From NCBI GenBank assembly GCA_040143965.1, contig JASJQH010006943.1:1-34156 (forward strand): a stretch of DNA of 34,156 nucleotides, written 5' to 3'. The stretch comes from Basidiobolus ranarum. Its lineage: Eukaryota. The notes under the pieces are model-generated. The model ran no database searches and was not told the origin of the DNA. It saw nothing but the letters and a program-made list of their open reading frames with translations. How positions within the stretch are numbered: the first letter of the stretch is position 1; each line of letters starts with the position of its first letter. Positions 5,603 through 30,337 of the stretch are shown piece by piece. The position numbers were made by a program, and so were the translations under genes.

Positions 5603-8600
5603 CTAAAACCCACCAAACATTTGATATCGCATCAATTGCACAGGATTAGTGGATGCCTTGACAGTCTTTAGTGCTGACTTGAAATCCTCTTGCTTCACTA
5701 TTAGCTATATTGAATAAGGTACTTGAGTAAACAGCACATTGTTCATACTATTGTGGTTGAGCATCCTACCTGTGAAGTACCACTAGTTCGGGATCGTTTC
5801 AGTGCATGAATACCAGCCTGCCTAGCCACAGCTGATAAATCAGCACCAGTATAACTGCTGGTCATTCCAGCTAGATCTTCAAACGAGAAACTCTCTTCTA
5901 ATGGGAATTTACGCAGATGTATGCGAAGAATATTGGCGCGCTCTTCAAGGTTTGGTGGGGGCACATAGACAAGACGATCCAATCGACCTAGATACGGTAC
6001 GGAATTAAAAAACGAAAAAAGAGAAAGAATTCACATTGGAATTACCTGGTCTTAAGATGCTCTTATCTATGCTTTCCGGATGATTGGTGGCTGCTAAAAT
6101 GACTACACCATTCTCAACAGCATTGAGTTCGTCCAATTCTAACAGTAATTGAGAAATCAACTAGACAAAAAACCTGAGTAAATTCATTCCATTGATCCAG
6201 ATGCAATTAAGATACATACTTTCTTTCCTAGATTTCCTGCTGATTCACGCTTTCCAAACAAAGCCTCTAATTCATCCAGAAAAACAATGCATGGACTACA
6301 TCTTTTGGCCACCCGGAAGATGTTTGCCAATGCCTTTTCCGACTCTCCGATTTCACTCTTGATGAGATCGGGGATTAGAACAGGCAGGAAATTGGCCGAT
6401 GATTCAGTAGCCACAGCTTTGGCGAGTAAGGTCTTACCAGTGCCGGGTGGGCCATATCTACATATGACTATCTTGTTAGGATGTCGCTTAGTTGAAGGTA
6501 GTTGCTCCTTTCTTTGACTTACAGTAATATTCCACGGGATGGTCGTATTCCCAATCTTCTAAATGCGTCGGCATGCTTGTAGAGCCATATGACAGACTCC
6601 TCCAATGCGCTCTATAAAATGCCCGCTCAATAGTCTGGTCTGAGTTGAAGTGTGTGCATACCTATATCTACCTTGACCTGGCCAAGTCCACCAATATCCG
6701 ACCAAAGCACTGGCTCGATCTTACGAATACTACTATGCTCCCGAAGAGTGTTAATTTTGATGGCATCCATCAATGGAAGAAATTCGTTTGCTGATAAAAT
6801 ATGATCTACATATAAAAGGATTTTCAGTTTTAAGCAGGGAGCGGTTTGTATTCTAATGCGAGACATACTTGAATTTCTGGAGAATTTCGCCTTCGCCAAA
6901 CTGCATAATAGCTCGATATCTACTGCGATATAACCATGGCATTTGTCCGAAACTGACTTGATAACAGTATCGGGGACATTGATGTCCTTCGAACATGCTT
7001 CAAAAATATGGATGCGTTGCTCAGGTGTGGGTATATCCAATACAATTTCATCCTGGGGATTTGAGCGTTACGATAAACGGAATCAATACAATATTCATCA
7101 AAAAAATACCTGGAAATGCTTGCGCAGAGTATGGTCAACGTCAACTAGAGATTCTGCAGTTCCGACCTGGATCATGCAACTCCAATGATTAGTATGTTCA
7201 CTCTAAAAACAAATACAACACTGGGCTTACAAGCAGCACCCTGTGCTCTTTGGACTGTAGTTCGTTTAATATATCAAGAAGATAGTGGTTAAGCGATTCA
7301 CTGGTTTCCGAACTGGAAAATAGCGTCTCAATATTATCAAAGACAACTGTTAATGAAAAGAAATCGCTCGTTATGCTTTCCAATATTAAATGCAATAGAA
7401 AGAGCCTCTTACGAGTAGTTGGTTCCATTTTCACAGCAGTTTCAAAATATTCCCGTATTCCTTTGCCAAATTTTCCTGGATATTTTGTAGACAAGTCGCC
7501 TAGATTTACAGTGAGAACCTGAAGATAGGAATACTAAGTATCAGGTGCTGTGGTGCTAATTTCAAACGAAGACTTACTTTGGAACCGTAATAGTTGGATA
7601 GGTTTTCTATCAAATGAGTCTTTCCTTCAATAAGAAGGTATTTTAGCTCTGCTCTTTCATGATATATATCAACTTATTTGGTGTTTACCGATTCCAGATG
7701 TACCAATTAATAGGAAGTTATTTGGCACCAATACTCCATAATTTTTGCAAGGAGTACGATTTTCAAAAGCAAGAGAAAAGAGTTGTTGCATTCTGAAAAG
7801 AAGATAGTTTAGTTCGCTCTCTACGAGTACTTCAATCTTGAAAGGAATAACCTACCTATTTCCTTCATCTCCATAACAACTAATTAAATTTCCCAGGGTT
7901 TTACGCTCTTGAACGAATTTCCCCTCAATGGATTTCTCAATTGAGATCAGGCTGGTTTGTTCATTGACTATCCCCCATTCATCGCCAGATCCAGTACATT
8001 CACACCGAAATAGATGTTGCTTTCCGTTTCTTAATTGTATTTGAACAGTGTCCCCATTTCGTAAGATTACGCCGGACATTTGCTGAATAATGCGTGAAAA
8101 AGTCAAGGAAAATCATCATTTTCGAAACATGCTTTGATTGCAAATCTTTAGAAAGGATATAATAAGAACTGGGAAGTAATTTAAAATTCGCCAGTGGTGT
8201 CTCTGGCATTATCTCCATTCTCTCCCATCGACGTATAGAACTTAAGGATAATAGAGTGACCTCAACCTAGTGTAATGTCCAAAATCGGTCAACTTTAAGG
8301 AATTCCACTCTTATTCGAGTTTGCTCAAGTATTATCTTGCAAGAAAACGAGAATTGATAATATAACCACCTTACCTCCTCCTCTTCCTCTAATTTGAATT
8401 CCATTATTTGTTCATTTGATAACCACAATGTAGGACCCTCCTTCTTAACTTCTTTAGCGACGCGATTTTTCATGGGCGACCATTCTGGTCCAGAATTCTT
8501 ATCTAAATAACTATCGGACCATAGCTCGAACAGTCCTTGGATTTCTTGGGAACCTATTTTTATCATGGCGCGCACATTTGAATTACCCGAGTATGTTTCT

Positions 8601-8698
8601 AGTGCAATAAACCCTGGACCATTTACATATATTATTTCTTTCCTCTCGGAGCAAAGGGAGGTTCTATTCGAATGTTTTCTTGTTTTGAAAAGCACCAT
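5603..8698 (-). CDS. Type II (two-ring) AAA+ ATPase, CDC48/AFG2(SPATA5)-like, ~725 aa; 15 exons: 8375-8698, 8161-8266, 7856-8093, 7689-7792, 7578-7624, 7413-7518, 7231-7346, 7110-7166, 6869-7052, 6672-6805, 6523-6611, 6220-6457, 6046-6160, 5770-5987, 5603-5704
   Basis: D2: [65 protein letters not shown]. D1: GTSGIGKT and LVFDNIE. Exon lengths sum to 2178 nt (in frame). The exact orthologue is not certain. Confidence 0.85.
8094..8160 (-). other. U12-type (minor spliceosome) AT-AC intron, 67 nt, intron 2 of the AAA ATPase
   Basis: Minus strand: exon ..TCT TAT T | ATATCCTTTC ... TTCCTTGAC TTTTTCAC | GC ATT ATT CAG. The phase-1 join links two ORF-track fragments (..LLPSSY-C-IIQQMSG..). Confidence 0.88.
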
Positions 8699-15141: not shown

Positions 15142-16864
15142 ATGAACGACTCGATAGTTAGTAAAGCGAATGTTAGTAGTCAGGATCTAGTAAAGAGTGT
15201 AGATATTGTACCTTCTAAGCGTCCACAGGAAGTACTAGATGAGGATACATATACAGAAACCATTAGCTACTTAGTGGAGCGAGATTTTTTCCCAAATTTG
15301 ACCAAGATTAAAAAACAGAATGAACTCATCGATTCTTTGGATACTACCGATATTAATCGAATCAGTACAGTGACTAGATCCATTAAACAAGGAAGATATT
15401 TGGATACTCCTAGAAGATCTGATTCTCCATTGCCCAAGTTCCCTTCAAAAGAAGACCTTGAAGATCGAAAGTTCTCACACTTAAAAAATATATCCCTGGA
15501 CGATTTTCAAGCCAAATTCACATCGGAGGATAACGCTTCCTTTCTGGATTTACTGGATAAAAATAATGAAGAGAAACGTCAGAAGTACAAATACCTTTAT
15601 CAAAAGGAAGCCCCAACTTTGGCTATAGAAGACCAAAAGATGAAGCAGATTGAACCTAGTTCTAGTACTGGCTTTGTTGAGAGCTGGAAATACAAGGTAT
15701 TTTTTAAGGGATTGATCAACTTCATTCTTGACGCTACCTGCTCACACTATTTTACTCGGAAATAGACTAAAAACTCTCTGATGTATTATCCTGAAGGATA
15801 TCCTTTTTGTCTTTGATCGATCTTTTTGTTCATATTTATTTTAATTACATGACCTTAACTTCAACATACGTCCTATGAAAGCGATAAAAGTGAGGAACGC
15901 GGAGAATCCAAAGCTATTGCACACAAAAACACTCGTTTCGAAAGTGTAGGTAATGCGGTAAGGAAGTTTTACTTGGTCTTGATGACTCGATGGGATCACA
16001 TTGAACTGAGATGCGTTTCTTTATCTTATGTTAGGGGCCTTCATTTTCTCGGAATACCGACCGAAGCATTACATCAGGTAAGAAATTTAATCTTCAACAT
16101 CGACTATTAAGTGAAGTGATTTCTTAGAAAATTGCTAGATATGACTTCTGAAAGCGGAAGTGATTCCCCAAGAGTAAGAGGATATGGATTTGTTACTCCT
16201 TCACCACGACCTGAAGAGTTGGGGATTTTCCCATGGGATCTTGAGGGTATTCCTTCAGAGAGTAGTGAGTACACTTCTACAAAGCTTGCATTCATCTGTG
16301 CTTTATGATTCACCAACCATGATTCTGATAGAAACTCCCGTATTCAAACTGCCGCCAACTCCACGTCGGGAGCTGATCGCAATGAAGCTTAGCGAGAAAG
16401 CTTCCCGTAATCACCGCAAACAAACTCAAGCGTCACCTAGAGCAAATGCATTGAGGACACCCACCAGGTATGTTGTTCTGCATTCATCATTGGTGCGAAT
16501 CAGCTTCTCTTAACAAGTTCTTGCTCTCAGAATGGGTAGTCCTAGCCTGTCGATGAGATCACAGATGCTTTCACCCGCCGCACAGAAGCTCTTGAAAAAT
16601 AAACTACATATAGATTCCTCATTCAATAGCCACCAGGAAATACGTGAATCTTATGGTGGATTGACACCCAAACTTAACGGTAAGCCTGCTATCACAATGT
16701 ATTAACCACCACACCTTGCTAATCGAATCATTTGATGTCCCACCTGCATAGGTTCAAAATCAAGCATTAGGTCAAATATTATAACTCCAAAGCGAGTTGA
16801 GGTCTCCACCCCACTAAGAACGTCCATCACTGATGATTTGCTTGAATTTAAAAAGAAACCTTGA
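15142..16864 (+). CDS. ESS2: Splicing factor ESS2/DGCR14 (Es2 family), ~413 aa; exons 15142-15696, 15766-15797, 15870-15957, 16035-16077, 16139-16264, 16332-16467, 16531-16679, 16752-16864
   Basis: Motifs VLDEDTY, VERDFFPNL, SLDDFQAKFTSEDNASF, WKYKTKNSLMYYPEG, IAHKNTRF, SPRVRGYGFV, LSPAAQKLL and ITDDLL. Exon 4-5 boundaries are less certain. Confidence 0.92.
15798..15869 (+). other. U12-type (minor spliceosome) AT-AC intron, 72 nt, intron 2 of ESS2
   Basis: Exon ..CCT GAA GG | ATATCCTTTTT ... GACCTTAAC TTCAACATAC | G TCC TAT GAA. The branch A is ~11 nt from the 3' AC. The intron carries an in-frame TGA, and its removal joins YYPEG to the NTRF exon. Confidence 0.92.
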
Positions 16865-25505: not shown

Positions 25506-25940
25506 CTAAAATATACACATAACATCGGGGTCGGATGGCAGTACTTTGACCTTGTGTACTCCATAAACTGATGGACATTTAGTGGGTCGATTTTTCTTAC
25601 CCTCTTTCTGAGTATCAGTGAGGATCAAAGTGTCATTACCTATGAATCGACTAGTGATGGGGAAGAGTATTTCAATGAAGTTTCCCTGACTCTGGATGTC
25701 TACAGTGCTTATTTGATGAATCACAGCGCCACGGCGAGAGCCAGAAGGATACATCTCCACCTTCAAACCATTCACGGTGTTAATTTCGCGAGATGGAATA
25801 CGGAATTGTAACTTCATAGTACATCCAGCGTGAATCGTATTAGGCCCATCAATATCGACATTAGTGCGACAGATACTGGGAGGTGGCGCTGCAAAACCTA
25901 GACTCAGCATTGCGAGAGAAAGCAGAGTAGAAGCAAGCAT
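25506..25940 (-). CDS. Small secreted Cys-containing protein, paralogue 1 of 3 (144 aa)
   Basis: Signal peptide, 4 Cys conserved across the copies, high similarity to 26893-27330 and 28433-28867. TATAAAAA at 26023-26030. Confidence 0.88.
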   Translation of the reverse strand: MLASTLLSLAMLSLGFAAPPPSICRTNVDIDGPNTIHAGCTMKLQFRIPSREINTVNGLKVEMYPSGSRRGAVIHQISTVDIQSQGNFIEILFPITSRFIGNDTLILTDTQKEGKKNRPTKCPSVYGVHKVKVLPSDPDVMCIF

Positions 25941-26584
25941 TTCAAAAGTGACTTGGAGAGGATATTGAGCGATGCCGAAGTAGAGTAACTTGAGATATCG
26001 TTACAACATGAAAATAGAATCATTTTTATACGAGATTAGATGCGGGTCGAAAGACAGCGGTGGCACGTTGGAAGACATGCTGCACCCCAACTCTCTAGAA
26101 ACAGACTGAACTGGAACAAAAATGCTTGTCGAATACAGTACCAGCTGAAAGAAATTTTAATACCGGTTGTTCTCTATATCGAAGAGATGCATTCATGCCT
26201 CTGCATTTCATAGTATCTTCCATATGAAATTAGTTACCAAACTGAGATGACGCCGAGTAAATTTTGGAGAACAAATTAGCAACCAGCTTGCTATTTACCA
26301 ACAGGCTGATTACGGGAAATGTGTACAAACAATGTAATCCTTGCAAATAGATTAAGAAACCCACTTACTGATGTTACATTCATGGAATTTAAAGGCTGGT
26401 ACAGTGTACCAATAATGGAATGTGGATATGGTTGACTCAGATAGGCTATCTATATTCCTGTGGCTGCCCCAATTCCACGGCAAATAATAAATCTGAAACA
26501 TATGATCAGCAACAGATTTACGGGTTCAGTTGGCGTGAGACAATGATCATTTCGTTCAGGGTTAAGCACTGAGGGTCCATCACT

Positions 26585-29340: not shown

Positions 29341-30337
29341 TGATACGCTGTACCCATTTCTATCCTCTACGTGCCATGGCTAAGTATTTCTTCAATGATT
29401 TTACTTTCGATCGATGTGAGCCATTTAATATCTGATGGAAGTTATAGAAGAACAGAGAATGGGGTGCTTTTGCTTTCAGCTGTTCTTTCCCTCGTCACCA
29501 TTATAATAAGTTGTAATCCATAGCCAATCTCTACTTGGCATTTCTCATACCATACAAGATACGTGTGCCTAGGCTCAGGAAGGTTTCCATAAACATGATC
29601 ACATTTGCATTTTGTGTCTTTATCATAAGTTCAATGCTATATAACGAAAATGAACTCATTTGTCATTTTCTTCCACTCAAAGACCCACATGGTGAAGAGA
29701 AGACTCAAATAGGTCATCACTCACTATACCCTTACTTCCAGACTGAGGGATTCTATTGCGGTGCAGGACTTAGTGGAGTTAGTGAAGTTGTAATGCACCT
29801 CAAGGTTGCCGACCAGACTATTCCCTGTTGGGAACAAGAAGGTACATTATCCGCTTAACATTCAAATATGTTTCAATTAATTCCTTCAATAAATATACCG
29901 TTCTGAGTTCTATCGTTGATAATCGAAGTGATATCCTTGATAAACAAGCAGATATCAGTTACTTCTGCGGTATTTCTTACCAAGACAGTGGCCGTGAAAA
30001 AGTGTGATAACAAAGTAAAATAGCTATAGATACACCAGAACTGGACAGTAGTGATCACGTATGGCTGAGTATTTCCCTCTATTTTTACACTCCTTCTCAG
30101 TGCTATTTTCCAATGATGATGGCTAAGATGCAGCAACATTTCAATGAGTTATCCTCGCATTGACAGTACCTAATAGTAAGATTTGAGAATAGATAAGCGG
30201 CTCTAAGCTACGAAAAATAACTGACCACGTGCTTTCAGGCTTAGTTACGAAAAATCGCCATCGACAACGATTATACGTAAGGTGGCTTGGTCGGAATAAA
30301 GTCAAAAAATAATTCACTACACAAGCCACCCTTCTTG

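Follow-up and report, generated by a model that had tools for sequence, protein, structure and literature searches.

A very probable U12-type AT-AC intron in an Afg2/Drg1-like AAA ATPase gene of Basidiobolus ranarum

The host gene and its public model

The stretch of DNA analysed here (hereafter the window) comprises 34,156 nucleotides of Basidiobolus ranarum (assembly GCA_040143965.1, contig JASJQH010006943.1, positions 1 to 34,156). On its minus strand lies the coding region of K7432_002501, a two-ring AAA ATPase gene, which occupies 5606..8698 without the stop codon and consists of 15 exons and 14 introns when the protein is mapped to the DNA. The record was found through the translation of exon 1 (108 aa), which retrieved a single protein at 100% identity, hypothetical protein K7432_002501 [Basidiobolus ranarum] of 725 aa. 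In mapping this protein, all donor and acceptor shifts of up to 9 nt were tried for every intron. Thirteen of the introns have a GT-AG solution each (57-108 nt), and intron 2 has a single solution, 8160..8094, with AT-AC termini. Since K7432_002501 fits only when 8160..8094 is removed, the public record already uses this junction; the literature on the B. ranarum genome and its annotation yielded nothing on how the record was annotated. Exon 2 (8161..8266, minus strand) encodes VEVTLLSL...KLLPSSY and contributes the first base of a Cys codon, and exon 3 (7856..8093, minus strand) provides the last two bases of that codon and continues with IIQQMSGVIL...GDEGNR.

The family of the host protein was read from its ATPase rings. 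Pfam reports AAA on the D2 exon (9.9e-23) and AAA_lid_3 (4.4e-10), and AAA on a D1 exon only weakly (8.2e-4, below the cut-off). The protein as a whole matches chains of the CDC48 family, namely VAT, p97, AFG2A/B, NVL and Afg2, and the D1 ring taken alone is closest to yeast Afg2/Drg1 (3e-34, versus 8e-27 for the next family). These matches point to an Afg2/Drg1-like (CDC48-family) type II AAA ATPase. A literature search did not find SPATA5L1 and U12 together.

The N-terminal part of the protein is of a different character from the rings. Residues 1-223 (7856-8698, minus strand; exons 1-3) have no Pfam match, while both ATPase rings are well conserved. A search with the N-terminal 235 residues gave two sequences above threshold among 511 candidates, which were K7432_002501 itself and a protein of B. 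meristosporus, and a search with exon 3 gave one match among 1.84 billion representatives, again the B. meristosporus protein. Because this region has no detectable relatives outside Basidiobolus, a sequence-based comparison of intron positions is confined to the genus. In the alignment, the first residue of the B. meristosporus model falls opposite Met76 of the B. ranarum one; either the first 75 codons (8474-8698, minus strand) may be over-extended in B. ranarum or the orthologue model may be truncated.

Signals, reading frame and orthologue of the AAA-gene intron

Read directly on the minus strand, 8160..8094 is ATATCCTTTC...TTCCTTGAC...AC, a stretch of 67 nt whose context is ...CCCAGTTCTTATT/ATATCCTTTCTAAAG...GATTTTCCTTGACTTTTTCAC/GCATTATTCAGCAAATGTCC..., with a slash at each splice site. 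U12-type AT-AC introns have the 5' splice site consensus ATATCCTT and the branch-point consensus TCCTTRAY. The donor here is ATATCCTTTC (8160-8151), in which the sequence and the motif counts given below mark ATATCCTT at 8153..8160 as the 5' splice site, followed by TTC. The branch-point sequence TTCCTTGAC lies at 8102..8110, identified by its sequence and by the joint-pattern scan described below, and the branch A is presumed to be 8103, an assignment made from the TCCTTRAY consensus. The intron ends in AC at 8094..8095, so that the branch A is 9 nt from the last intron base and 10 nt from the first exon base (8093). The sequence-only reading that drew attention to this site had described the donor, the branch and an AC 9 nt after the branch A, and all of these details are correct.

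In U12-type introns the branch point is optimally 11-13 nt away from the 3' splice site (Turunen et al. 2013, PMC3584512); the 9-10 nt found here are short, as required, and fall just below that optimum, by 1-2 nt. Introns of this type lack a distinct polypyrimidine tract; here the branch A is separated from the final C by just 8 nt (CTTTTTCA), which are pyrimidine-rich but too few for such a tract to be judged. A scan for RNA structure within the intron gave no notable fold (z-score 0.32).

Removal of the 67 nt has a precise effect on the reading frame. The upstream exon (...KLLPSSY) ends at 8161, one base into a codon, which makes this a phase 1 intron. The T at 8161 joins the GC at 8093-8092 to form a Cys codon (TGC), after which the downstream frame reads IIQQMSGVIL. 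Were the intron retained, the exon-2 frame would reach a stop ahead of both ATPase rings. The earlier claim that the phase matches exactly and that the intron bridges two frames is thus borne out by the frame itself (T plus GC giving Cys), by the public protein and by the orthologue.

The orthologue is an AAA-domain-containing protein of B. meristosporus CBS 931.73 (649 aa) with 76% identity to K7432_002501. The two proteins align without a gap at the junction, where B. meristosporus has FKLLPSSY-S-ILQQISRAIL and B. ranarum has FKLLPSSY-C-IIQQMSGVIL. The SSY codons lie right before the donor and the I(I/L)QQ codons right after the acceptor, so the alignment with the orthologue needs the 67-nt stretch to be removed. 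All 1547 in-frame, stop-free deletions in the neighbourhood of the site were also scored against the orthologue. The top scores (255-257) all belong to 67-nt deletions whose positions differ by only a few bases. Three of these, shifted by 6-8 nt, score 257, one above the 256 of 8160..8094, with termini that are not splice-like, and deletion 8161..8095 ties at 256, also without splice-like termini. With shifted 67-nt deletions scoring 256-257, the orthologue therefore fixes the length and the rough place of the missing stretch, not its exact bases. Twelve of the 1547 deletions have GT-AG, GC-AG or AT-AC termini, and among these 8160..8094 is the best, with 256 versus 242 for the next.

Three observations agree: the sequence itself, the fact that no other removal yields the public protein, and the top rank among candidates with accepted splice termini in the comparison with the orthologue. 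We conclude with high confidence that minus-strand 8160..8094 is the second of the 14 introns in the B. ranarum gene for the Afg2/Drg1-like two-ring AAA ATPase K7432_002501 and that it belongs to the U12-type AT-AC class. The initial proposal, an AT-AC intron of the U12 type within a gene for an AAA ATPase, is supported by its motifs, by the sole fit of the public protein and by the gap-free orthologue. We infer that the stretch is excised in RNA and that its excision is U12-dependent.

A companion intron and chance matches in the window

The window holds another intron of this kind. K7432_002506 (15142-16861, plus strand) encodes a 413-aa splicing factor of the DGCR14/ESS2 family (Pfam PF09751, from precomputed annotation) and contains a 72-nt, phase 2 intron at 15798..15869 (plus strand) that reads ATATCCTTTT...GACCTTAAC...AC. 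It is supported by its sequence, by the public protein and by a homologue. The donor ATATCCTT starts at 15798 (plus strand), and the branch A is 15858, 11 nt before the last base. The public K7432_002506 protein fits only with the AT-AC intron 15798..15869; the other 6 introns of the gene are GT-AG and 61-77 nt long. Among the homologues listed, the nearest comes from Bifiguratus adelaidae, and it aligns over the 15798..15869 junction without a gap. Judged by the same sequence tests as the AAA-gene intron, the companion is a real AT-AC intron. The only literature match for DGCR14 together with U12-type concerns Stentor.

The companion and the AAA-gene intron share the donor ATATCCTTT, the AT-AC termini, a similar length (72 versus 67 nt) and use by the public gene model. 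They differ in that the companion has the branch CCTTAAC at 11 nt and lies in phase 2. Phases 1 (AAA gene) and 2 (DGCR14/ESS2) both avoid phase 0, in line with the under-representation of phase 0 among minor introns described by Larue and Roy 2023 (PMC10639083). When the two AT-AC introns are aligned, the donor consensus and the final AC are common to both, and the interior matches amount to a few scattered bases over two long gaps. This pattern of matches rules out the two as copies of one mobile element. Because only the splice-site consensus and scattered bases match, we regard the two introns as independent of each other, and the sequence-only reading, which had called the AAA-gene intron a second, independent AT-AC intron, was right on both counts: 15798..15869 passes the same tests, and the interiors have little in common.

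How often such motifs arise by chance was assessed in the whole window. The donor 8-mer RTATCCTT alone occurs 5 times where 3.12 occurrences would be expected, and since 5 or more were counted in 15 of 100 shuffles, the 5' motif alone is within chance. The joint pattern ATATCCTT-N30-60-TCCTTRAC-N5-14-AC has one match in the window and had none in 100 shuffles. A looser pattern, [AG]TATCCTT-N25-120-CCTTRAC-N5-14-A[CG], has two matches in the window, which are the AAA-gene intron and 15798..15869 (plus strand). In 2000 dinucleotide-preserving shuffles, this looser pattern occurred 0.025 times on average, with at least one match in 50 shuffles and at least two in none. Further relaxation is uninformative: with [AG]TATC[CT]T as donor and C[CT]TTRA[CT] as branch, 6 donors in the window had a partner where 300 shuffles averaged 5.1, and the relaxed scan of the window gave no GT-AG candidate with a branch site.

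Other U12-like sites in the window were considered and set aside. Within 25506-26000 (minus strand), ATATCCTC (25965) and GTATCCTT (25745-25752) are both situated in a single open frame of 164 aa; their branch-like motifs are weak and distant, and they look like chance matches to coding sequence. Neither GTATCCTT nor a copy of ATATCCTT at 29931 has a branch site, and all of these sites were rejected as chance. At 15794-15805, AAGGATATCCTT forms a 12-base palindrome, and for this reason the donor motif ATATCCTT occurs there on both strands; of the two copies, the one on the plus strand alone is accompanied by a branch site and lies in a gene of that strand. Rfam and tRNA scans of the window gave no match, and no minor snRNA was found in it.

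The AAA-gene intron can be read in other ways. The junction might be an artefact of annotation, forced by protein homology or by a permissive predictor, in which case transcripts would retain the 67 nt or be spliced elsewhere. The models of B. meristosporus and B. ranarum could share a method. Against this, a forced junction would not be likely to coincide with a full donor, a branch and a correctly spaced AC, a combination seen in none of 100 shuffles, and the only in-frame GT-AG alternative nearby, 8128..8083, scores 235 against the orthologue versus 256 for the AT-AC junction. We consider an artefact very unlikely. A reading that we rate as less likely still is that the AAA gene starts at the ATG at 8080-8078 (MSGVIL...), so that the 67-nt stretch would be 5' UTR or intergenic DNA and exons 1 and 2 would belong to another transcript. 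That ATG lies 13 nt after the proposed acceptor and MSGVIL resembles a protein start; the lack of a Pfam match in exons 1-3, and of detectable relatives of the N-terminal region outside Basidiobolus, would also suit a start at this point. The orthologue, however, has Ile at the candidate start Met, and its gap-free alignment extends upstream across exon 2 to cover the final 34 residues of exon 1. Exons 1 and 2, moreover, both have long open frames, and the GT-AG intron between them is a good one. The sequence-only reading had itself raised a separate transcript for exons 1-2 as an outcome that would overturn it, and the orthologue, continuous into exon 1, answers this against the separate transcript.

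A remaining alternative accepts the junction and assigns its removal to the major spliceosome, with 8160..8094 as a U2-type AT-AC intron. U2-dependent AT-AC introns do exist, as stated in two papers (PMC1557818; PMC11347168). According to PMC3584512, however, it is the donor and branch sequences, and not the termini, that define the U12 type, and both are complete in the AAA-gene intron. GTATCC is not found at the start of any of the 19 GT-AG introns in the two genes, which also argues against removal by the major spliceosome, and this is to us the least probable of these readings.

Proposed splicing and minor introns in Basidiobolus

The minor spliceosome recognises the donor and the branch site together through the U11/U12 di-snRNP; once U4atac/U6atac.U5 has been recruited, the donor passes from U11 to U6atac. 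Applied to the U12-type AT-AC intron of the AAA gene, this scheme would have U11 bind the donor ATATCCTT and U12 pair with the branch TTCCTTGAC, bulging A8103, with the G in TTCCTTGAC probably forming a G-U wobble with U12. U4atac/U6atac.U5 would arrive next, and U6atac would take the donor from U11. The AC located 9-10 nt past the branch A would be picked as acceptor by its distance, and two transesterifications would join 8161 to 8093, producing the TGC Cys codon. This new codon would connect the N-terminal region, which is specific to the genus, with the remainder of the protein.

The inference of a high minor-intron density in a fungus, drawn from two AT-AC introns in close proximity, was right and not new, as the density is in print for the genus. 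B. meristosporus is credited with 249 minor introns, or 0.554% of its introns (Larue and Roy 2023, PMC10639083), and with 237 minor introns (Olthof et al. 2024, PMC11347168); the latter text also lists snRNA genes for U11, U12 and U6atac, together with a divergent, putative U4atac. At a frequency of 0.554%, the probability of at least two minor introns is 0.02-0.11 for an assumed 40-100 introns, which makes two per contig mildly above expectation. Since the window was chosen for these introns, their joint presence in the contig is not evidence of clustering.

Much the same holds for length. The 67-72 nt of the two introns had been called very short for U12 introns, which stands in comparison with animals and does not stand within this genome. 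The 19 GT-AG introns of the same two genes measure 57-108 nt, a span that includes both 67 and 72 nt, and as this is the usual intron size here, length is no anomaly. According to PMC10639083, minor and major intron lengths correlate across species (rho 0.903), and still shorter minor introns are reported for Blastocystis (mean <42 bp). U12 introns in this window are thus as short as the neighbouring major introns. As for the suggested AT-AC bias, both U12-type introns found are AT-AC (2 of 2), a sample that decides nothing, and the accessible portions of the main texts on Basidiobolus minor introns gave no AT-AC:GT-AG ratio.

The origin of the AAA-gene intron allows a bolder proposal, to which we give little credence: that the intron is a lineage-specific gain within an AT-AC-skewed expansion of minor introns, as opposed to an ancient intron in a fast-evolving domain. 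A gain is proposed because the intron sits in the N-terminal region, which has no detectable relative outside Basidiobolus. If true, lineage-specific, AT-AC-skewed gain would explain the high minor-intron density of Basidiobolus.

Very probably, then, the AAA-gene intron is real but ordinary, a textbook AT-AC minor intron that is already in the public gene model. The genus has already been reported among those richest in minor introns outside Amoebozoa, and a single intron therefore matters little. B. ranarum shares the minor-intron trait with B. meristosporus, and the junctions of the AAA-gene and DGCR14/ESS2 introns are two clean sites at which minor splicing could be checked in an early-diverging fungus.

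Set beside the minor introns of B. meristosporus, the AAA-gene intron agrees in genus, in an orthologous protein that is gap-free across the junction and in the high density that the sequence-only reading had suggested; it differs in that the species is B. ranarum and that the orthologue was compared as a protein only. With the U12-type AT-AC introns described by Turunen et al. 2013 (PMC3584512), it shares the ATATCCTT donor, the AT-AC termini, a phase other than 0 and a TCCTTRAC-type branch near the 3' end. It departs from them in being short (67 nt, like the other introns of its genome) and in a branch-acceptor distance of 9-10 rather than 11-13 nt, and it is known here from sequence.
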